Source of the DNA: an uncultured Bacteroidota bacterium
Lineage (GTDB): Bacteria > Bacteroidota > Bacteroidia > NS11-12g > UBA9320
NCBI GenBank assembly: GCA_913054375.1
Contig: CAJXIQ010000002.1
Span: forward strand, 1-56,151
Direction: 5' to 3'
DNA: 56,151 bases
The stretch's first letter is position 1. Each line of letters begins with the position of its first letter. Shown in pieces: positions 1,485 to 20,108 of the stretch. Below the pieces are notes generated by a model. That model had not been told where the DNA came from. It saw nothing but the letters and a program-made list of their open reading frames with translations, and ran no database searches. The position numbers and the translations under genes are program-made.

Positions 1485-4400
1485 TTATCTCATATTGTCG
1501 GTCTCGTTTTGGAGGAGGTCCTTAGCGCTGTAGCTTTTATTATTTAAATAGTACTTATTGAAGGTGCACCATTGACATGTATCCTCCTCGCATCCTTTCT
1601 CAAATTCTAACTTCTGTATCTTTGCAAAGGTCTCCGCGATTTGTTTTTTAACGAAAGTGTACTCATCGTCATTTACCATGATTTTAACCTTTTTGTACGT
1701 CTCTCCTTCTGGTTCTATAAAGTCGATCTCTCCCGATATAACTCTGAGGTTTTTTGTAGTATCGCTTTCTATCAAAGCCTTATAAAATAAGACTTGCCTC
1801 CAATAGTCTCCACCGTACCGTTTTTCAAAATTATCCTCATATGGATTGTCCTCCAGTAGCACGGGAGGTTTTACCTTTTTGACGCCGTACTTTACCTGAC
1901 CTGTCTTGAAATCTACAACATGTGCGGTGCCTTCATTAATGACTACTTTATCTATCTGCCCGCGAATAGGAACTCCGTCTATTTCACCGTTCTTGAGAGA
2001 CAATTCGGTGTGTATTTCGCCTTCTTCGCTCCAAGTAGCAGCATATTTATCATAGTACTTATTCAGAATATCAATTCCATAATATGTTCTTCTCTCTAGC
2101 CCTTCCAGTGTAAAAGCCTCTTTACTGCTATTCATCTGTGCAGTAAAACGCTTTTTAAGAAAATCCTTGGCTTCTTCTGCATCTTGCAAATCATCTAGGT
2201 TTTTGTACAAACCATCAAGAGCATTATGCACTGCCGTACCAAACGAGGAGCTCTCTCCCTTTGCCGAGGGTACACGCAATATATTTTGGTAAAAAAAGGC
2301 AACAGGACATCTCAAATAGCTATTTAAGTTTGTAGCACTAAGTCTAAAATTCTCTACTTCTTTCACTACAAAGTCTTGTTTCACGAGGTCGATATATTCC
2401 TCATTATTATGTGTAAGCATGAAGTCAAAAAAGTGTAATAAGTCGTCTTCATTTGCTTCCTGCTGTTGAAAAACTGCGGCTCCGCTTTCCTCTAACTCCA
2501 CTACAAATAAGCTCTTTGTTGAAGCTTTATCTGATTCATCTCGTAGAGCATAGCTGATTTCTATTCCTTTTCTGGCTCTAGTAATTGCTACATAAAAGAG
2601 CCTCCGTGATTCCTCTATATATGCCTTTTGAGGTTCTCCAGGAAACAGTAAGTTAAGCTTGTAGGGGAGTGCTTTTTTATCTTTTTCCCATTTCTTTTCT
2701 GTACAACCAATAGCAAACACATAGTCGTATTCTAGCCCTTTAGATCCATGTACAGTCATCAGGTTTACACCATTAATACCGTGTACTATTTTGGTAAGTT
2801 TTAATCCTATGTTATTGGATTTTAAAAGTTCTATTTTACGTAAAAATGCATGGAGCGATATGTAGGGTTCGCGAGCCGTTTCCTCTTTTAAAAAATTATA
2901 GTACGTCTTTAGGCACTGTATTTGAAATGTGGCATCTTTTGCAGATAATGCCCGTGCTACAAACCCCACCTTTGACATAATTCTCTCTACTAAATTTTGT
3001 AGGGTCACATTATGCATTTCCGTAATCCAAAACTCAATATCTGCTACAAAAGCCCTCAACTCACTTTTTGCTTCTTTTTCAATTTCCAATCCCGCGGCAG
3101 CGATATTCAGATGCTCACGCCAACCAACTAACCTGTTCTTTGCAATAACGTTGCTTATTCGAGCAATATCAAATGCCGATATATGCTTAAAATTGTGGTA
3201 ATGCAGAATTTCGAATAATAAGTGCTGACCAGTATCAAGGTTTTTGCTTTCTAAACTTAAGTATATCAAAAAGGTATTGAGTTGATGCACTAGTGGCACC
3301 TCTAGCACATTTTGTGTTTTAGCGACATTGTAGCTTATCTCTTCTGCCTCAAGGTATTTAATTAGTTCCACACTCTGACTGTGATTACGGTACATTATAC
3401 CAACATCGCTAAGTGATACACCATCTGCCTTTAGTTTTTTTAATTTGGCTGTAACACTTACTATCTCCTGAAAACTATTGGGGTATTCCACTATTTTCAG
3501 TGCGTTTAGTATGCCTGCTACGGAGTCGTTAGAGGCCACAATCTTCTTGTTTAAATTGTCCACCCTACCAACTAAGCGTTCGTCATTATGCTCTATTATT
3601 GCGTTGCTTCCATCTAAAATATTCTGGCTCGAACGATAGTTTTGATCCAATACAACCAGTTCTATGTCCTCCTCATATCGCTTAAAAAATTCAAAAATAT
3701 TTTCTACGTTGGCTCCTTGGAATTTGTACACCGACTGGTCATCATCACCTACAACAAACACATTGGGGTTTTCCCAATAATTTATCAACGTATAGAGCAA
3801 TTCATTTTGAGCACCATTGGTATCTTGATACTCATCTACCAAAAAATATTGATATGTCTCTTGATACTTGAGTAGTAAATCATCATTGTCTTTTAACGCG
3901 GAAATTACCCAGGTGATCATGTCATTAAAATCATAGCGTTTTCTCGCAGCTAGCTTTGAATCATAGGAATCTAGAAGCAAGGCCGCCTCCACTAACTTCT
4001 CTAAAGATTCCTTATCTGCATTATATTTACGTAGGTTAATATCTCCCTTTTGGTTCTCTCCTGATTTACGTTGGTATAGGTAGCTTTCATCGGTAAGCAT
4101 ATCCTCTAGCTTGGCTATCACTTTGGAATGGATATTTGCCGCCGTCAGATGATCTTTTTTCATCAATCCGAACAGTTTTAGTAAGTTTTTTATATCATAA
4201 TAAACATCCCCAACATACCGCTTTATTTTGCTGCTGTTTGGAAGTTCATCTACAATCTCTTTCATGACTTCCAGTACTTCTAGTTCAGATACAGGATCTA
4301 AGTCTTGTATTCCAAAAAGGTCTTTGTTTTCTTGTATAACCGTATTGCAAAATCCGTGGTACGTATATACATTCACTTTATAGGACTGAGAACCCATAAA

Positions 4401-4628
4401 TTGGTTCAATCGCATTCTTAGTGCAGTAGTTGCAGCCTCTGTAAAAGTTAAACATAGTATGTTTTCTGGGCTAGTATCTGTATTTTTTACAATACTGGCA
4501 ACGCGAGCTCCTAGGACTTGTGTTTTGCCCGTTCCTGGGCCTGCTACTACCATTACACTGCCTTCTGTTGTATCTACCGCTTTTTGTTGATTTGGATTTA
4601 GTGTTGTGTATACTTCTTCGAATGTCAT
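1485..4628 (-). CDS. UvrD/PcrA-family ATP-dependent helicase fused to a C-terminal PD-(D/E)XK nuclease domain (AddA/AddB-like)
   Basis: Walker A AGPGTGKTQVL and motif II VDEYQDTN. C-terminal nuclease motifs GQIDKV...VVDFKTG and YWRQVLFYKAL. Four Cys (CPVAFF and CEEDTCQWC) resemble the AddB/Cas4 Fe-S staple. Confidence 0.85.
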   Translation of the reverse strand: MTFEEVYTTLNPNQQKAVDTTEGSVMVVAGPGTGKTQVLGARVASIVKNTDTSPENILCLTFTEAATTALRMRLNQFMGSQSYKVNVYTYHGFCNTVIQENKDLFGIQDLDPVSELEVLEVMKEIVDELPNSSKIKRYVGDVYYDIKNLLKLFGLMKKDHLTAANIHSKVIAKLEDMLTDESYLYQRKSGENQKGDINLRKYNADKESLEKLVEAALLLDSYDSKLAARKRYDFNDMITWVISALKDNDDLLLKYQETYQYFLVDEYQDTNGAQNELLYTLINYWENPNVFVVGDDDQSVYKFQGANVENIFEFFKRYEEDIELVVLDQNYRSSQNILDGSNAIIEHNDERLVGRVDNLNKKIVASNDSVAGILNALKIVEYPNSFQEIVSVTAKLKKLKADGVSLSDVGIMYRNHSQSVELIKYLEAEEISYNVAKTQNVLEVPLVHQLNTFLIYLSLESKNLDTGQHLLFEILHYHNFKHISAFDIARISNVIAKNRLVGWREHLNIAAAGLEIEKEAKSELRAFVADIEFWITEMHNVTLQNLVERIMSKVGFVARALSAKDATFQIQCLKTYYNFLKEETAREPYISLHAFLRKIELLKSNNIGLKLTKIVHGINGVNLMTVHGSKGLEYDYVFAIGCTEKKWEKDKKALPYKLNLLFPGEPQKAYIEESRRLFYVAITRARKGIEISYALRDESDKASTKSLFVVELEESGAAVFQQQEANEDDLLHFFDFMLTHNNEEYIDLVKQDFVVKEVENFRLSATNLNSYLRCPVAFFYQNILRVPSAKGESSSFGTAVHNALDGLYKNLDDLQDAEEAKDFLKKRFTAQMNSSKEAFTLEGLERRTYYGIDILNKYYDKYAATWSEEGEIHTELSLKNGEIDGVPIRGQIDKVVINEGTAHVVDFKTGQVKYGVKKVKPPVLLEDNPYEDNFEKRYGGDYWRQVLFYKALIESDTTKNLRVISGEIDFIEPEGETYKKVKIMVNDDEYTFVKKQIAETFAKIQKLEFEKGCEEDTCQWCTFNKYYLNNKSYSAKDLLQNETDNMR

Positions 4629-4738
4629 TGCAGGGGCAATATGAGTGTTTTTTTTTATTTGCTTGTAGTAAGGCCTTTAATTGTCAAAAAAAAATGACAG
4701 CGATAACCGGAACTCTTTAAGGATATTTGACTCTAATT

Positions 4739-7700
4739 ATGAAAACAAGAGTATTAATGAAAGTAAAGAATTATACCTTCAGGGGGGTTGTCTCAGTATT
4801 ACTCACGTTTGCTGCGGGTTTTTCGATGGCACAAACGCAATACTGTTCGTCACGATCATACAGCCCAGAGAACACCAAATGTGATCGTGTTGAATTAGTG
4901 GGAGAATCTGTGACTATTGATGTAAACTCGTCGCATCTTGGATGCGAATTGTACACGGATAACACAGCACTCCCTGCCGCAGATATGGCTGCAGGAAAGT
5001 CTTATACAGTTTCTATAGAAGCAGGTTCATGTTCTCGCGATCTTAGACTTAACGTTAGAACTAATGTGTGGATAGATTACAACAATGACGGCGACTTTAC
5101 AGATGCAGGTGAAATGCTCAGTGACGGCAGTTCCTTAAGAACGACAGTCAATATCAACTTTAAAGTCCCTTGTAGTGCAAAATCGGGAATGACTAGGATG
5201 AGAGTTATAGTCATAGAACAACCTGCAGCCTTAACCAACCCGTGTGGTTCTTTCCCCTTTGGTGAAACAGAAGACTATACAGTACTGATTACAAATCCTA
5301 AAAGAGTAACTAGCGCATTCTTTATACCAGACACTGCTTTTACTGGAACTTTGGTGAACATAACTAACTCCAATCAAAACGGTTATCTATCTCACGAATG
5401 GACTATCGACGGGACAAAAACTTCTACAGTTAATACAGGTTACGCATTTTCTCCTGCAGGCACATACGATGTAAAACTTAAAAGCACCAACTGTCTTGGA
5501 ACCGATTCTACTACGAAAAGTATTGTGATTGTCGATCCTACGGCACCTGCCGTTTCAGATTTTGTTTCAGATAAAAACGTTGTCGAACTATATGAACCTG
5601 TAAGTTTAATCGATTTAAGTACCAACGGCCCTACCTATTGGAATTGGGTTATTAGCAATGGTGTAGACACCATAGATGGTGACGATGACCCTTCTCTTAG
5701 AGGAGGTAATCCACGCATCAACCAAAACCCTATTATATACACTTCAAATGGGAATAGTACAGTAGGTCTAGGTGTATGGACTGTTACACTTACTGCATCT
5801 AACGCTATCAACGGTTCTGCACCAGAAACAAAGATTGGATACATAACTGTACAACGCTCCTCGTATAACATGGGTGCAGCTACTGCTCTTCCTGCAGGTG
5901 TCATCACTATACCAAGTGGTGAGCTATTTGACAAAGGTGGGCCGACTGGCAACTACAGCTCTCCAGATTACAACGAAGCTCTTATTGCTCCGTGTGGTGC
6001 TCAAAGCGTAACACTAGAGTTTACTCAATTTGAAGTTCGTGCAAATGCAACACTCAAAATATATGACGGCTTGAATGCTCTTGCTACTCCTTTACACACG
6101 GGTAACGGATACACACTGGGTAACGAACCTACTGGACCGATTACAGCTTCATCTGGAGCTATGTACCTTCTTTGGACGACAAGAGCAGGTGTTAATACCG
6201 TTGGGTTTGCTGCTAATTGGTCTTCTGTGGATGGTGTAGTAGGCGCTACTCCTGTAGCTGGTTTTACATTGCCTAATACGACTTTATATAACACTGTTCC
6301 TGTATCATTTAAAAACACTTCTTTAAATGCCGGTGGTAATACTGCCCTTGAGTGGACACTTACTGGACCAGAGAATTTCACATCTAACTTAACCGATTTT
6401 GATTATACATTCCTCTCCAATGGTAGCTACACACTCTCTCTTAAAGCAATTACTTGTGACAACCAAGTAAGTACATCAACACAGTCTTTTACTGTAGTTT
6501 CTCCTACGACGCCTACCAATCTTGATTTTGTCGCTGACAATCAAAGACCTAATATAGGTGATGCTGTTACGATAACAGCTACTAGCGATAAAGCAAATAA
6601 CTGGGAATGGTCTATTTTCCCTTTAACGGGATGGGAAGCAGATACACGTCCAAATACATCCAATGTACGATCATTTACATTTAACCAACCAGGGGTTTAT
6701 ACGGTACAGTGTAGAGCGTATAACTCTACGAACGAATTGGCCTCTGAAGCTACGGTTGTGAAAACGTCTTACATCCTTGTAGTTGAATATTGTACTCCTA
6801 TTATCGGGGTTACTACTTCCACTGATATAGGCATAAGCTACTTTAGTTTAACTGACCCTCTATCTGGTACGTCTTTCGAAAACAGCTCAGCTACAGGTGT
6901 AGAATATACAGACTACTCTGACCTTGGTGCTATTGACCTTAATTTTGGAGGTACGTATACCTTCGAAGTTAAAAGACCTAGTAACGTAAATGATATGTCT
7001 CGCAAAATGTGGATCGATTGGAACGTAGATGGTGACTTTGATGATGCCGGTGAAGAAGTAGCTGCTGAAGCTGTAGGTAACAACATGTCTTGGACCAGTT
7101 CTTTCACTGTTCCAGATGCTAATACTGCTTTTGAAGCAACTACCAGAGCTCGTATTGGAGTATCGTATGATACAGATCCTAACGAAGCGTGTGGGGCTTC
7201 TTCTAACCCAAATGCTAACCGTATTGGTGAGTTTGAGGACTACCTTATTCGTGTAGTAAACGATGGAGATGAGCCTGTAATCACTCTAATAGATGCAGAT
7301 ACTGTATTTATAGAGCAAAATGCCACTCCACCTTACGTAGCCCTAGGTGCTACAGCACTAGATCCTTCTCAAGGCGACATTTCGGGTAATATTACAATTA
7401 CTTCTGACCTGGATCAGTCTCTTGCTGGGGTATACTACGAGGTATACAATGTTATGGATGCATCAGGAAATCCTGCAGAACCCGTTACGCGTGTAATATA
7501 TGTTGTAGCTGACCAAACGGCTCCAGCAATTACAATCAATGGAGCAAACGATGTTACTATTGAAGTTGGTACTCCTTATGTAGATCTTGGAGCTACTGCT
7601 CTAGATAATACTGAAGGCGACCTTACAGCTGCTATTGTAATTTCAGGTAACGTAGATGAAAATTTGCTCGGTGTTTACACTATTACATACAGCATCCAAG

Positions 7701-8809
7701 ATAATCAAGGTAATGCATCTTCTGAAACACGTACTGTACGTGTAATAGATTCACAACTGCCTATCATTGACAATGCTAGTGCCGATAAATCAACTGCGTG
7801 CTGGACTGTAGAAGTTCAACTCCAAAATATATTTGCGGATATCACTTCGGCTTCTGATAACTACAACAGTATAGGTAGTGGTTTAACATTTACTGCTACT
7901 CCAGCTTCTCCACAAGGAGGTGCAGCTGTAGATACACGTTTCCAGGGTACCACCTCAGTTACGTATACGGCTACAGACGAAAGTGGTAACATCACCATAC
8001 AGTGTGTAGACTATGTAGTAAGAGACTACGTTGCTCCAGAAATAAGCCTACGTACACTAGATGTTGTAAACCACAGAGTGAACACTCCGTACACACCAAT
8101 AAGCGCAACTGCTTCTGATAACTTATACTCAAGTACTCAGATCAGTTTAACTTCGACATCTAACGTAGATGCTTATGTGCTTGGTACATACCAAGATACC
8201 TATACCGCTACAGATGCAGCGGGTAATACAACTACTAAAGTTAGAACAGTAAATGTAATTGACGACTTGAGCCCGGTAATAAGCGGTAAATCAGGCGGTG
8301 TACTTACAGTGGGTGTTGGTTCTAGTGTTGATGCACTTGACTATATTACTTTCACCGATAACTATGACGCTCCAGGTGATCTATTGACAAACCACACCCT
8401 AGTCTATAACAATATCAATTTACAAGAAGCTGGTTTATACTCAGCGGTATTTAGAACTGAAGATAACTCAGGTAACCGTTCTAATGAATTTACCTTGTAT
8501 GTTCATGTTAAATACAACTATGATGTAATCACGAATAGTGTAAATGACCTCAACTTGGAAGATTTACTAAGTGTTAATCCTAATCCAACTTCGGGTAATG
8601 TTAACATCAATGTAAACCTTCCTGAAAATGAAGTGATCAACCTTGCTATCTTTAACACTATGGGCCAGCAAGTGGCACTAGTTAAAAATGGTAAAGCTCA
8701 AAACGGAACCTTTAACGTTAGCCTAGCTAACCAAGCAGATGGTATATACTACGTTCAAATGAACGTTCAAAATAAAATCATCACGAAAAAAATCGTTTTG
8801 AATAAATAG
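4739..8809 (+). CDS. Giant T9SS-secreted multidomain adhesin-like protein, copy 1 (GEVED head, PKD, CUB-like, second GEVED, Ig-like/DUF5011-type repeats, T9SS CTD)
   Basis: The track ORF begins at TTG 4727; the first ATG (4739) gives MKTRVLMKVKNYTFRGVVSVLLTFAAGFSMAQ. GEVED-type motifs: VWIDYNNDGDFTDAGE...FGETEDY and MWIDWNVDGDFDDAGE...IGEFEDY. PKD-like WTIDGTK...YDVKLKSTNCLG. CTD SVNPNPTSGNVNINV...GIYYVQMNV...KKIVLNK. Confidence 0.85.
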   Translation: MKTRVLMKVKNYTFRGVVSVLLTFAAGFSMAQTQYCSSRSYSPENTKCDRVELVGESVTIDVNSSHLGCELYTDNTALPAADMAAGKSYTVSIEAGSCSRDLRLNVRTNVWIDYNNDGDFTDAGEMLSDGSSLRTTVNINFKVPCSAKSGMTRMRVIVIEQPAALTNPCGSFPFGETEDYTVLITNPKRVTSAFFIPDTAFTGTLVNITNSNQNGYLSHEWTIDGTKTSTVNTGYAFSPAGTYDVKLKSTNCLGTDSTTKSIVIVDPTAPAVSDFVSDKNVVELYEPVSLIDLSTNGPTYWNWVISNGVDTIDGDDDPSLRGGNPRINQNPIIYTSNGNSTVGLGVWTVTLTASNAINGSAPETKIGYITVQRSSYNMGAATALPAGVITIPSGELFDKGGPTGNYSSPDYNEALIAPCGAQSVTLEFTQFEVRANATLKIYDGLNALATPLHTGNGYTLGNEPTGPITASSGAMYLLWTTRAGVNTVGFAANWSSVDGVVGATPVAGFTLPNTTLYNTVPVSFKNTSLNAGGNTALEWTLTGPENFTSNLTDFDYTFLSNGSYTLSLKAITCDNQVSTSTQSFTVVSPTTPTNLDFVADNQRPNIGDAVTITATSDKANNWEWSIFPLTGWEADTRPNTSNVRSFTFNQPGVYTVQCRAYNSTNELASEATVVKTSYILVVEYCTPIIGVTTSTDIGISYFSLTDPLSGTSFENSSATGVEYTDYSDLGAIDLNFGGTYTFEVKRPSNVNDMSRKMWIDWNVDGDFDDAGEEVAAEAVGNNMSWTSSFTVPDANTAFEATTRARIGVSYDTDPNEACGASSNPNANRIGEFEDYLIRVVNDGDEPVITLIDADTVFIEQNATPPYVALGATALDPSQGDISGNITITSDLDQSLAGVYYEVYNVMDASGNPAEPVTRVIYVVADQTAPAITINGANDVTIEVGTPYVDLGATALDNTEGDLTAAIVISGNVDENLLGVYTITYSIQDNQGNASSETRTVRVIDSQLPIIDNASADKSTACWTVEVQLQNIFADITSASDNYNSIGSGLTFTATPASPQGGAAVDTRFQGTTSVTYTATDESGNITIQCVDYVVRDYVAPEISLRTLDVVNHRVNTPYTPISATASDNLYSSTQISLTSTSNVDAYVLGTYQDTYTATDAAGNTTTKVRTVNVIDDLSPVISGKSGGVLTVGVGSSVDALDYITFTDNYDAPGDLLTNHTLVYNNINLQEAGLYSAVFRTEDNSGNRSNEFTLYVHVKYNYDVITNSVNDLNLEDLLSVNPNPTSGNVNINVNLPENEVINLAIFNTMGQQVALVKNGKAQNGTFNVSLANQADGIYYVQMNVQNKIITKKIVLNK

Positions 8810-8875
8810 GAATATCCATTCTTGTACTAATAAAAAGGCCCAACTAATGTTGGGCCTTTTTATTTTCAGTTTTTT
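5305..8875 (+). repeat. Direct repeat copy A (3571 nt): adhesin body plus terminator
   Basis: Matches 9687-13258 at a constant offset of +4382 through the stop codon. The sense translation and four antisense ORFs are duplicated exactly. Spot-checked lines are base-identical. Confidence 0.95.
8837..8866 (+). terminator. Rho-independent terminator of adhesin copy 1
   Basis: ggcccaac-taat-gttgggcc hairpin followed by tttttatttt. Confidence 0.8.
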
Positions 8876-8951
8876 ACATCAGCTATATGTCATTCATATT
8901 CAAGTATTTACGCCTAAAACATGATATTTATAAAACGCCAAATGCATTTTT

Positions 8952-8979
8952 TTTGCAACCTTATAGCCACATTAGTGTC
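8952..8979 (+). promoter_or_regulatory. Candidate ECF-type promoter upstream of adhesin copy 2 (TTTGCAACC-N12-TAGTGTC)
   Basis: The same 9-mer and 7-mer with the same 12-nt spacing occur at 13257-13284 ahead of the ECF sigma gene. The spacer itself is mostly different. Confidence 0.45.
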
Positions 8980-8987
8980 AAATTATT

Positions 8988-8995
8988 TAGATTTG
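8988..8995 (+). promoter_or_regulatory. Bacteroidetes -7 box (TAGATTTG) upstream of adhesin copy 2
   Basis: Exact match to TAnnTTTG, 38 nt upstream of ATG 9034. Confidence 0.4.
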
Positions 8996-9033
8996 ACATA
9001 CATTTTTAGTCCTACACGTAAATAAATTAATAC

Positions 9034-12000
9034 ATGAAAAAAAACATTACAACACTTAAATTCAGCTTTAACGCCCTAACAAAGGGTATCATGCTGCTTG
9101 CAGGTTACATTCTGCTCTCTTTTGGTTCATACGCTCAGTACCCCGTAGCGATACATTCCAACCAGTTTGGTTATGTATCATGCGCCGAATCTGCGATAGC
9201 ATTGGTGCAAGTAGAAGATGACAAAGGGAATATTGTCTTTACAAAAACAGATGATTGTAATGGACCGACAACCGTATTTGGTACTACTGCTAATCCAGTA
9301 TTTACACTTTCTGCAGGATCCAGTTATACTATACGTATTAATACAGTGGGTAGAACACCAGTATCTTCTTTTTTTGATACAAGGTCAACTGGAGCCATTT
9401 ATCTTGATTATAATAACGATTTTGACTTTACTGATGCAGGAGAATATATAACTACAGGACAGACAGGACAGGATATTCCAGGAGCTATAGGCAATAATAC
9501 TTATCCTCCTGCCCCTGCAACTTCAAGAGCAAAAACCTTCACTGTACCATGTACCGCTGTTGGTGGAATCACACGTTTACGTGTCCGTACATCTGACTTT
9601 TCGGGTGTTAGTGCTGCCACTTCATCCAGTCGATTTACTGATGGCGAAACAGAAGATTTTGTAATAAACATTGCAAAACCAGCTTCAGTAACTAGCGCAT
9701 TCTTTATACCAGACACTGCTTTTACTGGAACTTTGGTGAACATAACTAACTCCAATCAAAACGGTTATCTATCTCACGAATGGACTATCGACGGGACAAA
9801 AACTTCTACAGTTAATACAGGTTACGCATTTTCTCCTGCAGGCACATACGATGTAAAACTTAAAAGCACCAACTGTCTTGGAACCGATTCTACTACGAAA
9901 AGTATTGTGATTGTCGATCCTACGGCACCTGCCGTTTCAGATTTTGTTTCAGATAAAAACGTTGTCGAACTATATGAACCTGTAAGTTTAATCGATTTAA
10001 GTACCAACGGCCCTACCTATTGGAATTGGGTTATTAGCAATGGTGTAGACACCATAGATGGTGACGATGACCCTTCTCTTAGAGGAGGTAATCCACGCAT
10101 CAACCAAAACCCTATTATATACACTTCAAATGGGAATAGTACAGTAGGTCTAGGTGTATGGACTGTTACACTTACTGCATCTAACGCTATCAACGGTTCT
10201 GCACCAGAAACAAAGATTGGATACATAACTGTACAACGCTCCTCGTATAACATGGGTGCAGCTACTGCTCTTCCTGCAGGTGTCATCACTATACCAAGTG
10301 GTGAGCTATTTGACAAAGGTGGGCCGACTGGCAACTACAGCTCTCCAGATTACAACGAAGCTCTTATTGCTCCGTGTGGTGCTCAAAGCGTAACACTAGA
10401 GTTTACTCAATTTGAAGTTCGTGCAAATGCAACACTCAAAATATATGACGGCTTGAATGCTCTTGCTACTCCTTTACACACGGGTAACGGATACACACTG
10501 GGTAACGAACCTACTGGACCGATTACAGCTTCATCTGGAGCTATGTACCTTCTTTGGACGACAAGAGCAGGTGTTAATACCGTTGGGTTTGCTGCTAATT
10601 GGTCTTCTGTGGATGGTGTAGTAGGCGCTACTCCTGTAGCTGGTTTTACATTGCCTAATACGACTTTATATAACACTGTTCCTGTATCATTTAAAAACAC
10701 TTCTTTAAATGCCGGTGGTAATACTGCCCTTGAGTGGACACTTACTGGACCAGAGAATTTCACATCTAACTTAACCGATTTTGATTATACATTCCTCTCC
10801 AATGGTAGCTACACACTCTCTCTTAAAGCAATTACTTGTGACAACCAAGTAAGTACATCAACACAGTCTTTTACTGTAGTTTCTCCTACGACGCCTACCA
10901 ATCTTGATTTTGTCGCTGACAATCAAAGACCTAATATAGGTGATGCTGTTACGATAACAGCTACTAGCGATAAAGCAAATAACTGGGAATGGTCTATTTT
11001 CCCTTTAACGGGATGGGAAGCAGATACACGTCCAAATACATCCAATGTACGATCATTTACATTTAACCAACCAGGGGTTTATACGGTACAGTGTAGAGCG
11101 TATAACTCTACGAACGAATTGGCCTCTGAAGCTACGGTTGTGAAAACGTCTTACATCCTTGTAGTTGAATATTGTACTCCTATTATCGGGGTTACTACTT
11201 CCACTGATATAGGCATAAGCTACTTTAGTTTAACTGACCCTCTATCTGGTACGTCTTTCGAAAACAGCTCAGCTACAGGTGTAGAATATACAGACTACTC
11301 TGACCTTGGTGCTATTGACCTTAATTTTGGAGGTACGTATACCTTCGAAGTTAAAAGACCTAGTAACGTAAATGATATGTCTCGCAAAATGTGGATCGAT
11401 TGGAACGTAGATGGTGACTTTGATGATGCCGGTGAAGAAGTAGCTGCTGAAGCTGTAGGTAACAACATGTCTTGGACCAGTTCTTTCACTGTTCCAGATG
11501 CTAATACTGCTTTTGAAGCAACTACCAGAGCTCGTATTGGAGTATCGTATGATACAGATCCTAACGAAGCGTGTGGGGCTTCTTCTAACCCAAATGCTAA
11601 CCGTATTGGTGAGTTTGAGGACTACCTTATTCGTGTAGTAAACGATGGAGATGAGCCTGTAATCACTCTAATAGATGCAGATACTGTATTTATAGAGCAA
11701 AATGCCACTCCACCTTACGTAGCCCTAGGTGCTACAGCACTAGATCCTTCTCAAGGCGACATTTCGGGTAATATTACAATTACTTCTGACCTGGATCAGT
11801 CTCTTGCTGGGGTATACTACGAGGTATACAATGTTATGGATGCATCAGGAAATCCTGCAGAACCCGTTACGCGTGTAATATATGTTGTAGCTGACCAAAC
11901 GGCTCCAGCAATTACAATCAATGGAGCAAACGATGTTACTATTGAAGTTGGTACTCCTTATGTAGATCTTGGAGCTACTGCTCTAGATAATACTGAAGGC

Positions 12001-13191
12001 GACCTTACAGCTGCTATTGTAATTTCAGGTAACGTAGATGAAAATTTGCTCGGTGTTTACACTATTACATACAGCATCCAAGATAATCAAGGTAATGCAT
12101 CTTCTGAAACACGTACTGTACGTGTAATAGATTCACAACTGCCTATCATTGACAATGCTAGTGCCGATAAATCAACTGCGTGCTGGACTGTAGAAGTTCA
12201 ACTCCAAAATATATTTGCGGATATCACTTCGGCTTCTGATAACTACAACAGTATAGGTAGTGGTTTAACATTTACTGCTACTCCAGCTTCTCCACAAGGA
12301 GGTGCAGCTGTAGATACACGTTTCCAGGGTACCACCTCAGTTACGTATACGGCTACAGACGAAAGTGGTAACATCACCATACAGTGTGTAGACTATGTAG
12401 TAAGAGACTACGTTGCTCCAGAAATAAGCCTACGTACACTAGATGTTGTAAACCACAGAGTGAACACTCCGTACACACCAATAAGCGCAACTGCTTCTGA
12501 TAACTTATACTCAAGTACTCAGATCAGTTTAACTTCGACATCTAACGTAGATGCTTATGTGCTTGGTACATACCAAGATACCTATACCGCTACAGATGCA
12601 GCGGGTAATACAACTACTAAAGTTAGAACAGTAAATGTAATTGACGACTTGAGCCCGGTAATAAGCGGTAAATCAGGCGGTGTACTTACAGTGGGTGTTG
12701 GTTCTAGTGTTGATGCACTTGACTATATTACTTTCACCGATAACTATGACGCTCCAGGTGATCTATTGACAAACCACACCCTAGTCTATAACAATATCAA
12801 TTTACAAGAAGCTGGTTTATACTCAGCGGTATTTAGAACTGAAGATAACTCAGGTAACCGTTCTAATGAATTTACCTTGTATGTTCATGTTAAATACAAC
12901 TATGATGTAATCACGAATAGTGTAAATGACCTCAACTTGGAAGATTTACTAAGTGTTAATCCTAATCCAACTTCGGGTAATGTTAACATCAATGTAAACC
13001 TTCCTGAAAATGAAGTGATCAACCTTGCTATCTTTAACACTATGGGCCAGCAAGTGGCACTAGTTAAAAATGGTAAAGCTCAAAACGGAACCTTTAACGT
13101 TAGCCTAGCTAACCAAGCAGATGGTATATACTACGTTCAAATGAACGTTCAAAATAAAATCATCACGAAAAAAATCGTTTTGAATAAATAG
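9034..13191 (+). CDS. Giant T9SS-secreted multidomain adhesin-like protein, copy 2 (different GEVED-type head, identical body)
   Basis: Signal/anchor LTKGIMLLAGYILLSFGSYAQ. Head has IYLDYNNDFDFTDAGE...DGETEDF. From VTSAFFIPDTAF to the stop it is identical to copy 1 (1167 aa). Confidence 0.85.
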   Translation: MKKNITTLKFSFNALTKGIMLLAGYILLSFGSYAQYPVAIHSNQFGYVSCAESAIALVQVEDDKGNIVFTKTDDCNGPTTVFGTTANPVFTLSAGSSYTIRINTVGRTPVSSFFDTRSTGAIYLDYNNDFDFTDAGEYITTGQTGQDIPGAIGNNTYPPAPATSRAKTFTVPCTAVGGITRLRVRTSDFSGVSAATSSSRFTDGETEDFVINIAKPASVTSAFFIPDTAFTGTLVNITNSNQNGYLSHEWTIDGTKTSTVNTGYAFSPAGTYDVKLKSTNCLGTDSTTKSIVIVDPTAPAVSDFVSDKNVVELYEPVSLIDLSTNGPTYWNWVISNGVDTIDGDDDPSLRGGNPRINQNPIIYTSNGNSTVGLGVWTVTLTASNAINGSAPETKIGYITVQRSSYNMGAATALPAGVITIPSGELFDKGGPTGNYSSPDYNEALIAPCGAQSVTLEFTQFEVRANATLKIYDGLNALATPLHTGNGYTLGNEPTGPITASSGAMYLLWTTRAGVNTVGFAANWSSVDGVVGATPVAGFTLPNTTLYNTVPVSFKNTSLNAGGNTALEWTLTGPENFTSNLTDFDYTFLSNGSYTLSLKAITCDNQVSTSTQSFTVVSPTTPTNLDFVADNQRPNIGDAVTITATSDKANNWEWSIFPLTGWEADTRPNTSNVRSFTFNQPGVYTVQCRAYNSTNELASEATVVKTSYILVVEYCTPIIGVTTSTDIGISYFSLTDPLSGTSFENSSATGVEYTDYSDLGAIDLNFGGTYTFEVKRPSNVNDMSRKMWIDWNVDGDFDDAGEEVAAEAVGNNMSWTSSFTVPDANTAFEATTRARIGVSYDTDPNEACGASSNPNANRIGEFEDYLIRVVNDGDEPVITLIDADTVFIEQNATPPYVALGATALDPSQGDISGNITITSDLDQSLAGVYYEVYNVMDASGNPAEPVTRVIYVVADQTAPAITINGANDVTIEVGTPYVDLGATALDNTEGDLTAAIVISGNVDENLLGVYTITYSIQDNQGNASSETRTVRVIDSQLPIIDNASADKSTACWTVEVQLQNIFADITSASDNYNSIGSGLTFTATPASPQGGAAVDTRFQGTTSVTYTATDESGNITIQCVDYVVRDYVAPEISLRTLDVVNHRVNTPYTPISATASDNLYSSTQISLTSTSNVDAYVLGTYQDTYTATDAAGNTTTKVRTVNVIDDLSPVISGKSGGVLTVGVGSSVDALDYITFTDNYDAPGDLLTNHTLVYNNINLQEAGLYSAVFRTEDNSGNRSNEFTLYVHVKYNYDVITNSVNDLNLEDLLSVNPNPTSGNVNINVNLPENEVINLAIFNTMGQQVALVKNGKAQNGTFNVSLANQADGIYYVQMNVQNKIITKKIVLNK

Positions 13192-13258
13192 GAATATCCA
13201 TTCTTATACTAATATTGAAGGCCCAACTAATGTTGGGCCTTTTTATTTTCAGTTTTTT
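9687..13258 (+). repeat. Direct repeat copy B (3572 nt)
   Basis: See copy A. The only differences seen lie in the about 30 nt after the stop codon (G/A at 8824/13206; aaaaa vs attgaa before the terminator stem). Confidence 0.95.
13220..13249 (+). terminator. Rho-independent terminator of adhesin copy 2
   Basis: Same ggcccaac-taat-gttgggcc hairpin plus T-run as at 8837-8866. Confidence 0.8.
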
Positions 13259-13284
13259 TGCAACCATTCTATGACAATAGTGTC
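13257..13284 (+). promoter_or_regulatory. Candidate autoregulated ECF-type promoter (TTTGCAACC-N12-TAGTGTC)
   Basis: AAC-type -35 and GTC-type -10 elements at ECF-like spacing, 20 nt upstream of the sigma start codon. The motif is duplicated at 8952-8979. Confidence 0.5.
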
Positions 13285-13304
13285 TAACCTAATACAAGAG
13301 CAAA

Positions 13305-13838
13305 TTGATTAGTGACCAAGAACTTATACAACGATGTAAGAACAACGATCAGTCTGCTCAAAAAATGCTCTTTGAAAAGTATGCCAATAGAATGATGGCA
13401 GTTTGCATGAGGTACTGTAAAAACCAAGATGACGCAAAAGACTTGCTTCAAGACGGGTTTTACAAAGTCTTTGTAAATATCAAGACGTTTAAAGGTAATA
13501 GTACCATTTCCACTTGGATGACTCGTGTTTTTATAAACCTAGCACTAAACAAACAACGCTTAGGTAGAAATAAATACGACCACTATGAGTTTGATCCTGC
13601 AAAGGAAAAAGCTACCGAGGACCCATACCAAGAGGAACCGCCAGCCATTGCACCAGAAAAGGTGCTAGCTGCACTAAACCAACTTCCCGATATTTATAAG
13701 ATTGTATTAAACATGTACGCTGTAGACAGTATGTCTCACAAAGAAATAGCCAAAAAACTTGGCATTTCTGTAGGATCATCTAAAAGCAGGCTTTCCAGAG
13801 GACGTGTATTGCTGAATACTTTGTTACAAAACAAATAG
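13305..13838 (+). CDS. ECF-subfamily RNA polymerase sigma-70 factor
   Basis: Region 2 DLLQDGFYKVF and region 4 HTH MSHKEIAKKLGISVGSSKSRLSRGR. 177 aa, TTG start. Confidence 0.9.
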   Translation: MISDQELIQRCKNNDQSAQKMLFEKYANRMMAVCMRYCKNQDDAKDLLQDGFYKVFVNIKTFKGNSTISTWMTRVFINLALNKQRLGRNKYDHYEFDPAKEKATEDPYQEEPPAIAPEKVLAALNQLPDIYKIVLNMYAVDSMSHKEIAKKLGISVGSSKSRLSRGRVLLNTLLQNK

Positions 13839-13848
13839 AGGCTTTAGA

Positions 13849-15162
13849 TTGGATAATTTACAACATATCGACGACCTGCTCAGACAAGCATCCCAAGTGC
13901 CCGCCAATGCCTTGGTGAATGCCTCTGACTGGGCAGTAGTTGAGAAGAGATTGAAGCGACGGAAGAACCGTATATACACTGTATGGTTTTTTCTAGCTTT
14001 AATTTCTGTATCTAGTCTTGGAGTACTCATTCACCACGAAAACTCCAACGCGCCTATTGAACATATTGCAAAGGCTCCACGCTCAATAGCAGATACGCAT
14101 AATAACCTTCTGAATTCCCAAGATACACAACACGTTAAGATTGTAGAATCTACTCATAAAAGCCACCTAAGGCCAATAGCACCGGAGACCCGCGTAAACC
14201 ATACTCAAACAGTTCACATCCCTGCTACACCAGCGCACACCCGTACAACTAACGCTGTAAGCACACCGACACGATCCACTGAACATGTTCCGTATACGCC
14301 TTCGAAGGCCTTTACCTTGCTACCTATTCGTAGCCAGCTACCATCGCCATCCACAGAAACTGTTCCTCCAAATACACTGCACCTGATCCCACTCACTAAA
14401 ATAGTACGCACCGCAACTGTCGCAAAAACGATCAGTACGCATGAAAACACCTTACCTGACCACGAAACACACTGGGAAATAGGTATATCCTTTACACCTA
14501 GCCTATCCAGCAAAATCACTTCTGAAAACGCACGATTAAATGGACTAATAAACCGATCTTACTATGACAAAGTAGCGAACAGCGAAACCTCAGCGTTTTC
14601 GAATACTTTTGGCTTTAACACGCAGTACCATGCCAAAAAGTGGTTTATTTCCTCTGGCTTATTTATGACACAACGCACAGAACAGCTGGACTACAACTAC
14701 CAAATCACTGAAGGCCCTAACCATAATGCTACGGTAATTTATGGATATGTACCACTAGACCCACAATCATACGAATCTGTTGTTTATTCCGGGGCAAATT
14801 CATATCATTTCCTTGAAATCCCGCTAAACATTGGGTATAAGACAAGTATTTCACCTAACTTTGAGATAAGAACTCAATTGGGAGCATCCTATATGGCACT
14901 CCTAAGTAGAGAAGGGAAGAAAGGTAACTTCACCACTCTGGAGTTAGAAGATTTAAAGGATTTGCAATTTGCACAACACAATATCGCTGCTAATATAAAG
15001 ACAGGTGTCTACTTGAATAAGCAACGCTTTGTTCTCGGTGTAGAGCCGTTATTTGGCATTAACCTTAACTCACTAAGACCAGCAGAAACGTCAGCTATCA
15101 AAACAAAACCGTATGGATACGGGCTCAATATCACTAGTGCTATTAAACTCTTTAAACTATGA
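13849..15162 (+). CDS. Putative membrane-anchored anti-sigma-like protein with His/Thr/Pro-rich linker and C-terminal OM beta-barrel (PorT/OMP_b-brl_2-like) domain
   Basis: Starts 10 nt after the sigma stop. About 45-aa N-terminal soluble segment, then TM IYTVWFFLALISVSSLGVLI, then an about 150-aa H/T/P-rich segment. The C-terminal alternating-strand region has YHFLEIPLNIGYK and ends in IKLFKL. Confidence 0.55.
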   Translation: MDNLQHIDDLLRQASQVPANALVNASDWAVVEKRLKRRKNRIYTVWFFLALISVSSLGVLIHHENSNAPIEHIAKAPRSIADTHNNLLNSQDTQHVKIVESTHKSHLRPIAPETRVNHTQTVHIPATPAHTRTTNAVSTPTRSTEHVPYTPSKAFTLLPIRSQLPSPSTETVPPNTLHLIPLTKIVRTATVAKTISTHENTLPDHETHWEIGISFTPSLSSKITSENARLNGLINRSYYDKVANSETSAFSNTFGFNTQYHAKKWFISSGLFMTQRTEQLDYNYQITEGPNHNATVIYGYVPLDPQSYESVVYSGANSYHFLEIPLNIGYKTSISPNFEIRTQLGASYMALLSREGKKGNFTTLELEDLKDLQFAQHNIAANIKTGVYLNKQRFVLGVEPLFGINLNSLRPAETSAIKTKPYGYGLNITSAIKLFKL

Positions 15163-17594
15163 GAAGAATAGTATTACATATCGCTGCTCTACTCATCGTA
15201 TGTGCCATGCAAGCACAGATCCTTGCCCCTATGGGTAAAGGATTACCTGCTGCGCCCGACAAGATCGCAAACCATAAAGGTGGCGTAGTTGCTGCTTATG
15301 GTGATAGAGATAATGTCATTAATCTGCAAGTCTGGAATGGCGATTTCTGGTATACATTACCCACCCCAACTTTACCAAAAACAGGTGTTTCCTCTTTGGG
15401 TACCTACAAAATACTTGATTTAATCAGTTTTGAGAATGATATATACCTCATGACTGGATATGACCAAAGCCTTCAGGACGAGGCTACGAATAGCATTTTG
15501 AAATGGAACGGTCTTAGTTGGAGTAATATCAGTGACAATAAGATTTCCAAAAGTTTAGGGTTAAACACCCTTGTAATTGAAGATCAAGCTCTCAAGTGCA
15601 TTGGAAAATTTAAAGAAGGGAATACTGAAGCAAATATTGCGCGTTTTACGGGTTCAAGCTGGTCCTTGGAAGGTAACCTCATCACCAGCAATATAGAAAG
15701 TGATAATTTTACTAGTGTAGTCAAAAAAGGTGAAAATGTTTTTGCCACAGGAAGATTCACAAATCCGCTAGATAACAATCTTTCATTGGTAATGTGGAAC
15801 GGACTAGCGTGGTCATTAACTGATTTTCCGCCTTTTCTAGATAAAAACATTGCCCTTGGAACATACCAAGACAAGATTGTCGTTTTCGGTAAATCGAACT
15901 TTACCACAGCCCCTATTAAGATAAGTCAAGGAAATAACTGGACAGATCTAGCAAATGGACTAGAAAACTACACCGTACAAAATATTTCTCAATTTGCTGA
16001 ATTGGACGGACAACTCATGGCTCTTGGTTCATTTGTCAATAACCAGACAGCGGAACAAACTAAGCTTATGCTTTATGACGGTGAGCAATGGAATCCTTCT
16101 AATGTTGTCCTAAACCAAATTGACCAGATTCATTCATTTGGGAACGTAGTAGCCATAAGCGGCGACTACGATGACAATGGTATACTACGCGGCATTGGCC
16201 AGATTTATGCGGATAAAGCACAGGTAATTACGCGTGTGTTTAATGATAAAAATGGCGACTGTAAAAAAGACGAAGACGAGGATTGGCTGAGGCATTATCC
16301 GGTAAGTATAAATGAAGCACGCCTAGCCCCAACAGGAGATAATGGCGTTCTTTACGCTCAAATAGAAAAAAATAAGCGTTACACTATCAATGCTGCTAAC
16401 TACAGACATTTTGTTCCAACGTGTGACGATATACAGCTAGAGACAACAACGTATAAAACGTACTTTGAAAGTGCCCTTGGTGCAAGACAAGTATTAGGCA
16501 TTAGTGATGCTCAAATATATCTTACTGATAATCAAGGAAATAAGTATTTGTCTGGCGAAGAAAGAGAAGCCATACTCTGTGTATCTAATCTAGGAAGTCA
16601 GCCCATAACAGATGCGACAGTCTCATTAAGCCTGCCACAAGGCTTAGGGAATTTTACATCAGATATAGCTCCAGATGCGGTCACAGATAATATTGCTACA
16701 TGGACAATCAGCCTATCCTCTTCTACTCAAAAGTGCATTGTATTAAACTACAATCTGGGTGGTATTGATGACCAAACGTTGACTGCAGAGGTAGTGCTAG
16801 CTGATGGTGTAGCAGACGAAGACATAACAAATAATCAGTCTGACTTCACCTACTATACAGGAGAATCCTTGTCCAACAACAAGCAGTGCTTAAGCGGCGA
16901 GAATATTAGCCCTTCTGAACACCAACTGCGGTATAAAATAAATATTAAGAATGATAATGCAGCTACCGTCAAAGCCATCAAAATAGTAGACATCCTAGAT
17001 GATGATATTATTAGAAGTGTAAAAGGTATTTATATCACTACAAGTCATCCAGACGCTACAAATTACACCGACTACGAGTTTGTAACCAATGAGAACGGCA
17101 AGCAAGCATTAAAATTGATTACTACCATAGAAGGTGTTTCCATTCCACGTGCTAGTGAAAATGACGTTCTTTCTAGGGCCTTTATAGACTATCAGATTGG
17201 GATTCGTGGCGACCTTATGATCGAGGATGCAGAAATTTGTAATACGGCTAAGATTTACCTTTCATTTGATAATGGCGTATACGGAGAGGCACTTGTCACC
17301 AACACCGTATGTAGCTACATGAGTGAAACGCTTGGTATTACAAACAGCATTGACCTACCCCCTTCTATTGACGATTTAGACATAGGACCAAATCCGGTTT
17401 CTGATAAGGTTGTAATATCAAATAGCAGACACAATTCAGTGCGTATATCTGTGCTAAATAGTCTGGGTCAAAAGCTTACGCAGATAGATGTAAAGGAACA
17501 CTCGAACGTACGACTAGATGTGTCGCAATACCGCCCAGGTATATATTTCCTATATGCTAATGGACTATTTGCCAAGAAAATTGTTATCCATTAA
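15159..17594 (+). CDS. T9SS-secreted protein: six-bladed propeller-like repeats, SdrD-B/DUF11-like repeats, T9SS CTD
   Basis: ATGA overlap with the upstream gene. Six WNGxxW-type repeats: VWNGDFW, KWNGLSW, FTGSSW, MWNGLAW, SQGNNW, YDGEQW. VFNDKNGDCKKDEDED. CTD IGPNPVSDKVVISN...GIYFLYANGLFAKKIVIH. Confidence 0.75.
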   Translation: MRRIVLHIAALLIVCAMQAQILAPMGKGLPAAPDKIANHKGGVVAAYGDRDNVINLQVWNGDFWYTLPTPTLPKTGVSSLGTYKILDLISFENDIYLMTGYDQSLQDEATNSILKWNGLSWSNISDNKISKSLGLNTLVIEDQALKCIGKFKEGNTEANIARFTGSSWSLEGNLITSNIESDNFTSVVKKGENVFATGRFTNPLDNNLSLVMWNGLAWSLTDFPPFLDKNIALGTYQDKIVVFGKSNFTTAPIKISQGNNWTDLANGLENYTVQNISQFAELDGQLMALGSFVNNQTAEQTKLMLYDGEQWNPSNVVLNQIDQIHSFGNVVAISGDYDDNGILRGIGQIYADKAQVITRVFNDKNGDCKKDEDEDWLRHYPVSINEARLAPTGDNGVLYAQIEKNKRYTINAANYRHFVPTCDDIQLETTTYKTYFESALGARQVLGISDAQIYLTDNQGNKYLSGEEREAILCVSNLGSQPITDATVSLSLPQGLGNFTSDIAPDAVTDNIATWTISLSSSTQKCIVLNYNLGGIDDQTLTAEVVLADGVADEDITNNQSDFTYYTGESLSNNKQCLSGENISPSEHQLRYKINIKNDNAATVKAIKIVDILDDDIIRSVKGIYITTSHPDATNYTDYEFVTNENGKQALKLITTIEGVSIPRASENDVLSRAFIDYQIGIRGDLMIEDAEICNTAKIYLSFDNGVYGEALVTNTVCSYMSETLGITNSIDLPPSIDDLDIGPNPVSDKVVISNSRHNSVRISVLNSLGQKLTQIDVKEHSNVRLDVSQYRPGIYFLYANGLFAKKIVIH

Positions 17595-18280
17595 ATAGCT
17601 ACTGCTAAAGAAGCTAAGCTGAGCTTCAAACCTTCTACATCTAAGAGGACAGATCCACATGATTCCATTGTTGAGCCAGTGGTAATCACATCGTCTATAA
17701 GTAAAACATTCTTGCCTTGTATCCGTGATGGATCTATAACCCTGAATAATTCTTTAGAATTAACATACCGATCATACCGCTTTTTTTTGGTTTGAGTACT
17801 GTTGTGCCTTTCTCTTACGACCACGTCTGAGATCATCGGTATTTTCATTGCCTCACACAGCCCATGACCAAGCAAATCACACTGATTATATCCCCTTAGC
17901 ATTTGTCTTTTAGGATGCAACGGAATGGGTATCACGCAGTCAATAGTGCTAAAATTACCTGTTCTAATAAGGGCATCGCCGAGCCATTTACCCATTTCTA
18001 TGCCAAGATGAGTATCCCCTTTGTATTTTAACGCATGCATTAATTTTTTTACATCATTTGTGCCCTTATACGACAAATACGCTGTAGCAGCCTCCAACTT
18101 TAGCCGGCCCCAAAATTTCTTGGCCAATGGGTTGTCAAGCGCTGCAATTAACTCAAACTTGGAAAGCGTATATAAACATAAGTCACAAACAGACACCTCT
18201 TGCTTACTTAGGTACCCATCGCAACAAACACATAAGTTTGGGAAAAGCATTTGACCTACCGATGCCAACAAATTCTTCAT
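17591..18280 (-). CDS. comF: ComF-family phosphoribosyltransferase-like protein
   Basis: N-terminal Cys pairs (CVCCDG, CDLC) and PRTase motif VLLIDDVITTGST. Confidence 0.8.
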   Translation of the reverse strand: MKNLLASVGQMLFPNLCVCCDGYLSKQEVSVCDLCLYTLSKFELIAALDNPLAKKFWGRLKLEAATAYLSYKGTNDVKKLMHALKYKGDTHLGIEMGKWLGDALIRTGNFSTIDCVIPIPLHPKRQMLRGYNQCDLLGHGLCEAMKIPMISDVVVRERHNSTQTKKKRYDRYVNSKELFRVIDPSRIQGKNVLLIDDVITTGSTMESCGSVLLDVEGLKLSLASLAVAI

Positions 18281-18324
18281 TTAATGCTCAAATTAGGTGA
18301 AATACAAGACCTTTGCAACTATCT

Positions 18325-19398: not shown

Positions 19399-20108
19399 AT
19401 ATATTTCCCTAACAAACTAGCTAACTCTTCTTCTGAGTGATAACCCGTTTTATCATACACTTCTTTGCCGTTCTTATATATTTTAATCAACGGTATTGCA
19501 TTGATTTTAAAATGCTCAGAGACTTCAAGACTCTTATCCGTATCCACTTTTAGTACCACTAGCTCGTCTCCGTATTTTTTCTTCATGGTCTCTACATGCG
19601 GAGCCATTGCTTTGCACGGACCGCACCAAGTAGCATAGAAATCTACCAGTACAACTTTACCGGAGGATACCGCTTCATTGTACCTTGTTAACGAGTAGCC
19701 TGATGAGTTTGATTTTTTGGCGCCTACAATTATCTTGTATCCTTCAGCTTTCCACCTAAGTATGCCACCCCCAAGTTCATATACGTTATACCCCATTGCT
19801 TTTATTTGTGCTGCTGCCATAGTACTTCTACCACCTGATTTGCAGTACACGAGTACGTCCTTACTTTTGTCTAGCAGCGCTGCTTTTTGCGCAAAATCAG
19901 AACTATTTACATCGATATTACTAGCATTTTCTAAATGATTCATGGCGAACTCCTCGGGAGACCTTACATCCACAAGGGTATACTTTGTGTTGACCATTTT
20001 ATTTGCAAATGTTTTTACATCTACGCTTGAATTTTCTATTTTACTTGTCCCACAGGCCGCAATAAGCGTAACTATCATTGCTATCATACTCCATTTTGTG
20101 CTCTTCAT
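19395..20108 (-). CDS. Rhodanese-thioredoxin fusion lipoprotein
   Basis: Lipobox LIAAC, rhodanese loop YCKSGGRS and thioredoxin WCGPC. Confidence 0.85.
   Translation of the reverse strand: MKSTKWSMIAMIVTLIAACGTSKIENSSVDVKTFANKMVNTKYTLVDVRSPEEFAMNHLENASNIDVNSSDFAQKAALLDKSKDVLVYCKSGGRSTMAAAQIKAMGYNVYELGGGILRWKAEGYKIIVGAKKSNSSGYSLTRYNEAVSSGKVVLVDFYATWCGPCKAMAPHVETMKKKYGDELVVLKVDTDKSLEVSEHFKINAIPLIKIYKNGKEVYDKTGYHSEEELASLLGKYI

Follow-up and report, generated by a model that had tools for sequence, protein, structure and literature searches.

Most extracytoplasmic function (ECF) sigma factors autoregulate, with AAC-N17-GTC as the canonical spacing of their promoters (PMC3817407), and Bacteroidota encode 22.5 ECF sigmas per genome on average (PMC7826278). 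According to published work, the ECF21 sigmas occur in Bacteroidota only and are paired with Dma proteins (PMC13088901), in which a sigma-binding N-terminal segment of ~40 aa is followed by a transmembrane helix and then by a disordered tether that leads to a C-terminal outer-membrane barrel (PMC10927553, PMC13088901). ECF21/Dma systems are found across the phylum and have been studied in only a few gut species, where lipoprotein targets and vesicle formation were described (PMC10927553, PMC13088901); our literature search found no paper linking them to adhesins of type IX secretion systems (T9SS). Among the closest known systems to the locus described here are Das1/Dma1 (BT_4720/BT_4721) and Das2/Dma2 of Bacteroides thetaiotaomicron and EcfO/Reo of B. 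fragilis. We analyzed a stretch of 56,151 nt (hereafter the window; GenBank contig CAJXIQ010000002.1) from an uncultured Bacteroidota bacterium, in which a two-box motif stands before an ECF21-type sigma gene and also before the second (copy 2) of two tandem adhesin genes. Comparative evidence supports the proposal of the first-pass annotation of this DNA that the sigma factor drives its own operon and adhesin copy 2, and we consider it likely that the motif, GCAACC-N14-GTGTC(T/A)A, is a promoter read by the ECF21-type sigma of 13305-13838 that covers both.

Within the window, TTTGCAACC-N12-TAGTGTC was present only at 8952-8979 and 13257-13284, which confirmed the coordinates given in the first-pass annotation. 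At the adhesin site, 54 nt separate the final C of TAGTGTC from the ATG at 9034, and at the sigma site TAGTGTC ends 20 nt before the TTG at 13305. The core GCAAC-N15-GTGTC had exactly two matches on both strands of the window, well above the mean of 0.09 in shuffled sequences, and none of 100 shuffles contained at least two; no further match to the full 16-base pattern with up to two mismatches was found in the window. When the two sites were compared, the boxes were identical at 16 of 16 positions and the spacer at 4 of 12 (one match in the first 8 and three in the last 4), in agreement with the earlier observation that the elements and their spacing are kept while the first 8 nt of the spacer mostly differ. 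Because the two sites flank a repeat of 99.9% identity, the shuffle test alone cannot prove that they are independent. Two other scans were made: a generic sigma-70 scan (TTGACA/TATAAT), which is uninformative for Bacteroidota, found 30 sites versus 37.9 expected, and an Rfam scan of 4400-18400 gave no match at the gathering score, the sub-threshold ones sitting on two terminator hairpins.

Orthologous loci were collected from a one-genome-per-species scan (80 loci) and a metagenome scan (72 more), and 18 distinct loci contained clear sigma orthologues with 51–92% protein identity. In all 18, the sigma gene is preceded by TGCAACC-N13/14-GTGTCTA, which ends 16-31 nt ahead of a conserved TTG start codon. 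The box positions carried 1.7–2.3 bits, which is near maximal, and the spacer carried about 0–0.4 bits per position; it was unconserved in sequence and occurred in two lengths only (boxes of 11 and 10 nt, set 9 or 10 nt apart), giving TTTGCAACCTT-N9/10-nnGTGTCTAA as the promoter consensus of the clade. We take this pattern as the signature of a sigma-factor promoter, and because the signature stands before the sigma gene, the motif reads as autoregulation. The sigma gene has a TTG start in the window and in all close orthologues (L001-L011, L081-L088), with a conserved AGCAA(A/G) before it; the very short leader (16-31 nt from the -10 box to the start) and the weak start codon perhaps keep the basal level of the sigma low. 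All named loci belong to Bacteroidota, and some of the top matches, L001 and L003 among them, are labeled only "uncultured bacterium".

The 177-aa sigma factor contains the sigma-2 and sigma-4 domains only (PF04542, E 1.5e-12; PF08281, E 2.2e-16) and matched TIGR02937 at 87 bits (cut-off 42.9), which places it among the ECF (group 4) sigma-70 factors. Reference ECF sigmas, two for each original group, are given in the supplementary tables of Rhodius et al. 2013 (PMC3817407), from which we took 56 that cover all 43 original groups. In this best-hit comparison against the 56 references, phmmer gave ECF21_2825 (108.3 bits) and ECF21_1280 (101.9 bits) as the best matches, followed by ECF02 (74.1 bits), and the sigma is thus assigned to the ECF21 group by best reference match. 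ECF21_1280, to which it is 38% identical over the full length, is paired with the anti-sigma AS21_1280, listed as "hypothetical protein BT_4721" (PMC3817407), and is therefore Das1 (BT_4720) of B. thetaiotaomicron. A native ECF21 promoter, Pecf21_up4014, has been published as AGGCAACCC-TTTTTCATCCGGC-TTCGTCTATA, that is, GGCAACCC-N-TTCGTCTATA (PMC3817407, Suppl. Table 1). This single published ECF21 promoter used for comparison has, like the window, a GGCAACC -35 box (with identical GCAACC) and a GTCTA -10 box; it differs in reading CGTC where the window has TGTC, and in its GCAACC-to-GTC distance of 17 nt versus 16 in the window (15 in some relatives). The arrangement of AAC -35 and GTC -10 elements, which the first-pass annotation had recognized as the general ECF layout, agrees with the canonical spacing and broadly resembles the published ECF21 promoter.

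The motif at the adhesin genes was evaluated with a two-box position weight matrix (PWM) built from the sigma-upstream sites of 11 loci (L001-L011) only, with no sequence from the window and none from adhesin genes. In the window, the sigma site scored 29.3 bits, the adhesin site at 8952 scored 27.0 bits, and the next match scored 15.0 bits; in 200 first-order Markov simulations of 56 kb, the best score was 14.1 on average (sd 2.7) and 22.4 at most. The third match (46926-46897, minus strand) was dismissed, as it lies inside an open reading frame and equals the level of the null maximum. In the relatives that reach far enough upstream, the next-best match or matches were always located just before the adhesin gene or genes preceding the sigma gene, with 34.4 bits in L002, 31.2 in L006, 20.3 in L009, 32.2 in L091, and 14.9 in L008; in L082, L084, and L088, both tandem adhesins bear the motif at 26–29 bits, and no other match in the loci of these relatives was above about 16.5 bits. 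Conservation in orthologous loci, which had been suggested as a check of the proposal, was thus positive at the sigma genes and at the adhesin genes. Across 266.5 kb of orthologous DNA, searched on both strands, 34 matches reached at least 20 bits, all on the coding strand (23 before sigma genes and 11 before adhesin genes), and none of them was inside a gene; an equal frequency inside genes, which the first-pass annotation had named as a refuting result, was thus not seen. Copy 2 has what is expected of a regulon member: the same motif stands before the gene in the proper orientation, and the orthologues have it too (8 loci, 14.9–34.4 bits). Since the boxes are near invariant, the spacer is unconserved, and the adhesins of relatives bear the motif, we concluded that the 8952 motif is best read as a maintained promoter and not as a duplication leftover.

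We proposed the following mechanism for this locus. The motif before the sigma gene would make a three-gene operon (sigma, Dma-like anti-sigma, and an 811-aa T9SS cargo protein) self-activating, and the motif before adhesin copy 2 would place that gene in the regulon of the sigma. At rest, the short cytoplasmic N-terminus of a 437-aa membrane protein, the candidate anti-sigma, would hold the sigma, and a cell-envelope signal, sensed via the outer-membrane barrel of this protein, would free it; RNA polymerase bearing the sigma would then start about 6-8 nt after GTC, near 13291-13293 and 8985-8988. At adhesin copy 2, an overlapping sigma-A type -7 box, TAGATTTG (8988), would probably give basal together with ECF-induced expression. 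The motif with its significance and its conservation at two classes of genes, the gene identities, the likeness of sigma and promoter to ECF21, and the Dma-like architecture are observed; we infer the pairing of sigma and motif, the start sites, the anti-sigma function, the signal, and the co-induction of adhesin and operon.

Several observations weigh against this proposal. The -10 element of copy 2 is GTGTCAAA against a clade consensus of GTGTCTAA; the change from T to A after GTC is its sole departure from the consensus, at a position invariant in 18 of 18 sigma sites, and because the -10 is off consensus, with its half of the PWM scoring 8.1 bits versus 13.4 at the sigma site, the copy 2 promoter may be weaker. 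The adhesin site of L008, with GAAAC instead of GCAAC, is weak and scores at the level of the simulated null. BLASTP similarity of the 437-aa protein to Dma1 was not significant. The genome, 56 kb of which was examined, may encode other ECF21 paralogues reading the same motif. Finally, the motif is gone from copy 1 in this genome, and an adhesin therefore need not be tied to the sigma.

At copy 1, no ECF21-type motif was found in the upstream region (4629-4770), where the best PWM score was -4.8 bits; copy 2, which had been predicted as a target, is thus the sole predicted adhesin target here. The copy-1-type orthologues (L082, L084, L088, and L091) bear the motif at 26–32 bits, and in this lineage the copy 1 promoter has apparently decayed or been replaced. 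A degenerate copy 1 site, GGAAC-N15-GACTCTAA at about 4709-4736, was considered and rejected at -4.8 bits. The region upstream of copy 1 (4629-4757) also holds GATATTTG, a near match to the housekeeping -7 box. The start ATG 4757 of copy 1 was favored, as the protein then begins MKVKNYTF..., compared with MIKDNYLIK in relatives.

A different reader of the motif, either a paralogous ECF21-type sigma encoded elsewhere or a DNA-binding regulator recognizing two boxes, would leave the motif functional, and we regard it as unlikely. Bacteroidota are rich in ECF sigmas and 56 kb of the genome was examined, and related sigmas could cross-read such sites, as CAACC-N15-17-(C/G)GTC motifs were located upstream of 20 of 69 more distant sigma relatives (33–44% identity). 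However, in every orthologue the motif stands in cis to the sigma gene, with a short and constant distance between them, and the GTGTCTA -10 travels with this sigma clade, to which it is specific, whereas GCGTC or CGTC is found in the more distant relatives. Unlike the typical sites of dimeric regulators, the boxes form neither a palindrome nor direct repeats, and their AAC/GTC content and spacing are of the ECF promoter type.

The housekeeping element at copy 2 bears on how this gene would be controlled. The primary sigma of Bacteroidota uses TAnnTTTG as its -7 box, and a -33 box, TTTG, stands about 19-21 nt upstream of it (PMC9723704). A TAnnTTTG box was located exactly 8 nt after GTGTC at the copy-2-type promoters of the window, L002, L006, L082, and L088, and the copy-1-type and sigma promoters are without it. 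In the four relatives, (T/C)TTG stands 20 nt upstream of the -7 box, inside the ECF spacer; at the copy 2 promoter of the window, no -33 box was found, and TATAGC stands there instead. The full housekeeping-type promoter of the relatives, (T/C)TTG-N20-TAnnTTTG, interleaves with the ECF promoter, its -7 box lying 8 nt after the ECF -10, and the two polymerase forms would compete for overlapping DNA at such promoters. Because the position of the TAGATTTG box is conserved in relatives, this adhesin plausibly has a conserved housekeeping promoter interleaved with the ECF one, and reading the arrangement as dual control is reasonable. The dual control that the first-pass annotation had proposed from the box at 8988 was therefore borne out in part: the box is present and its position is conserved in four relatives, but the window lacks the -33 TTG. 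We consider it very unlikely that copy 2 is driven here by the TAGATTTG promoter only, with the ECF boxes decaying as they already have at copy 1. Such decay would fit the T-to-A change in the copy 2 -10, the complete loss of the motif at copy 1, and the conservation of TAnnTTTG at copy-2-type promoters; however, the copy 2 site still scores far above the null, and because the -33 TTG of the relatives is missing in the window, the housekeeping promoter is if anything the weaker element. Moreover, GTCAAA, the sequence at the copy 2 site, is a good ECF-type -10 in other families.

The tandem adhesins seem to have a history of sequence exchange. The two adhesin genes share a tract of 3572 nt, outside of which their 5' ends differ, and the window's copy 2 is the orthologue of the sigma-adjacent adhesin of relatives. 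Paralogous adhesins in L082, L084, and L088 are 90–93% identical within a genome and about 60% identical between genomes, and the N-terminal 200 residues of the adhesins, together with their promoters, sort into two orthologous types. Since identity is higher within genomes and two 5' types exist, the adhesin pair would be old, with its 3' 3.5 kb homogenized per lineage by gene conversion, which points to ongoing gene conversion (concerted evolution) of the tandem adhesins. In L002, an orphan -35 box, TTTGCAACCTTT, was observed at 1504-1515 behind the terminator of the upstream adhesin, with no -10 and with the full promoter at 1595-1625; this orphan is a genuine duplication residue, copied with the adhesin 3' flank from the sigma-proximal copy. 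In the window, the 76 nt after the copy 1 terminator (8876-8951) were considered as a decayed copy of the sigma promoter and rejected (alignment score 14 versus a shuffle mean of 13.6, p = 0.44).

That the 8952 motif is itself a passive, functionless leftover of a duplication or gene conversion that copied an adhesin with the start of the sigma promoter is highly improbable: the two sites do flank the repeat, the 3' end of which abuts the sigma -35 box, the L002 tract does run into the promoter, and the adhesin and sigma promoters share some sequence past the -10 (CTAATACA), a hint of ancient shared ancestry, but the 8952 site lies 76 nt outside the repeat, the DNA in between does not resemble the sigma promoter region, the spacer has diverged while the boxes are identical, the motif persists across adhesin orthologues of only 43–63% identity, and it is present before the adhesins of L006 and L008. 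In the latter two loci, only one adhesin is encoded, the gene upstream of it is divergent, and no remnant of a terminator is left, so that the motif there is no by-product of copying an adhesin 3' flank, and the view of the first-pass annotation that the elements are selected rather than plain duplication residue was largely upheld.

The repeat also affects the assemblies. The contigs L001, L003, L004, L010, L011, L083, L085, L154, L155, and L160 stop where the adhesin repeat ends, 50-250 nt upstream of the sigma gene, and L156-L159 break at the repeat boundary; as so many contigs stop at the repeat end, the duplicated adhesin breaks short-read assemblies in many samples. L153 (ENA ERZ508553 NODE_1132), which was aligned with positions 3709-5305 and 9687-23838 of the window, has an identical sigma and one adhesin that combines the copy 1 5' end with the shared 3' part, without the copy 2 5' end and its promoter; either the repeat was collapsed in assembly, or the strain is a real recombinant. 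Contigs with an identical sigma were examined for strain variation of the copy 2 promoter, and none of them extends to 8952.

The coordinates of the locus are given in table 1. Both adhesins (1350–1385 aa) contain GEVED, Ig-like, and HYR domains and a C-terminal Por_Secre_tail sorting domain, and both they and the 811-aa protein carry PF18962 and TIGR04183 C-terminally, as in type A cargo of the T9SS. Each adhesin gene has a strong intrinsic terminator behind it, and the one after copy 2 splits adhesin transcription from the sigma promoter. The gene of the 811-aa protein was kept in all orthologous loci and is an integral third gene of the sigma operon.

Table 1. Features of the ECF21 sigma and adhesin locus, in the order of their positions in the window.
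Feature	Position	Strand	Details
Adhesin copy 1	4757..8809	+	likely start ATG 4757; ATG 4739 and TTG 4727 also open
-35 box, predicted ECF-type promoter of adhesin copy 2	8952..8960	+	TTTGCAACC, core GCAACC 8955-8960; -35 half of PWM 18.9 bits; same box before orthologous adhesins
-10 box, predicted ECF-type promoter of adhesin copy 2	8973..8979	+	TAGTGTC, core GTGTC 8975-8979, then AAA (usual in the clade: TAA)
-7 box of Bacteroidota housekeeping-sigma (sigma-A) type (TAnnTTTG)	8988..8995	+	TAGATTTG, 8 nt after GTGTC
Adhesin copy 2	9034..13191	+	N-terminus orthologous to the sigma-adjacent adhesin of relatives
Tract 99.9% identical to 5305-8875	9687..13258	+	3572 nt; gene-conversion or duplication tract; its end coincides with the beginning of the sigma -35 box
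Intrinsic terminator hairpin after adhesin copy 2	13217..13242	+	T-run to about 13259; near-identical twin 8829-8864 after copy 1
-35 box, predicted promoter of the sigma gene	13257..13265	+	TTTGCAACC
-10 box, predicted promoter of the sigma gene	13278..13287	+	TAGTGTCTAA, core GTGTC 13280-13284
ECF sigma factor	13305..13838	+	177 aa, TTG start; best match ECF21 group
Candidate Dma-type anti-sigma factor	13849..15162	+	437 aa; adjoins the sigma gene; architecture-based
Third operon gene, T9SS cargo protein	15159..17594	+	811 aa; DUF11, DUF7619, Por_Secre_tail; 4-nt overlap with the preceding gene

The protein encoded after the sigma has the layout of a Dma protein. Its residues 1-42 are conserved and are followed by one hydrophobic helix (43-61; Kyte-Doolittle 2.03), a variable linker (about 140 aa, rich in T, P, and H), and an outer-membrane beta-barrel at the C-terminus that resembles PF13568. 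This family (OMP_b-brl_2) matched Dma1 (BT_4721) at 33.6 bits and the orthologue in L008 at 38 bits, which is above the threshold, and matched four others, including the window protein, at 18–22 bits, below it; the 437-aa protein itself had no significant family match. An hhalign comparison with Dma1 (an incomplete sequence of 399 aa) gave E = 0.013 over 29 N-terminal columns (SDW..EK.L..RK..Y..W), a collinear motif directly before the helix. Because the direct similarity to Dma1 is weak, we call the 437-aa protein Dma-like by architecture only: it is a candidate and not a proven homologue.

Autoregulated ECF promoters with neighboring regulon members are textbook knowledge, and the ECF21/Dma family has been described. 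What is new here is the predicted regulon of this clade, with T9SS adhesins and T9SS cargo instead of NigD-like lipoproteins. This small regulon, predicted for one clade of these systems from uncultured, apparently marine Bacteroidia, would consist of the sigma's own operon, including a T9SS cargo gene, and one or two giant T9SS adhesins. The comparison also makes a defined promoter consensus available for the clade, and the locus provides an example of a selected promoter beside a gene pair homogenized by gene conversion. The understanding of ECF regulation as such is unchanged, as the regulation is of an ordinary kind in a little-studied sigma family. As a speculation that we rate as quite unlikely, the Dma-like barrel might monitor the cell surface made by the sigma-induced adhesins and the 811-aa cargo protein, in a self-contained feedback circuit tuning adhesin display; if true, such a surface-sensing circuit would be the first defined input-output logic for the Dma/ECF21 family outside vesicle formation.

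Compared with the well-known rpoE of Escherichia coli and sigW of Bacillus subtilis, the locus has the same AAC -35, GTC -10, and spacing of about 16-17 nt, and likewise a promoter directly before the sigma/anti-sigma operon, with predicted positive feedback; it differs in its GCAACC and GTGTCTA specificity bases and in the leader of 16-31 nt from GTC to a conserved TTG. A link between ECF sigmas and the T9SS, with a "CGT"-type -10, exists likewise in SigP/PorXY of Porphyromonas gingivalis and in the SM6 ECF-type promoters of Flavobacterium psychrophilum (PMC4800418, PMC9723704); there, the secretion machinery (por/gld) is targeted, whereas the predicted targets here are cargo, the sigma belongs to another family, and there is no PorXY link. 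Further parallels are with the Das/Dma systems. As in Das1/Dma1, the sigma (38% identical to BT_4720) is directly followed by a partner gene with the Dma layout and a PF13568 barrel; as in dma2, the operon has three genes; and as for das1, a small regulon, here a predicted one, includes an adjacent gene (NigD2 beside das1, the adhesin here) in a system restricted to Bacteroidota. The window's anti-sigma candidate shares with Dma1 the architecture only and has no significant sequence similarity to it, and the present system is predicted from sequence, in an uncultured marine organism. The Das/Dma targets are NigD-like lipoproteins, with vesicle formation, whereas those predicted here, which nothing ties to vesicles, are giant adhesins and a cargo protein of the T9SS.

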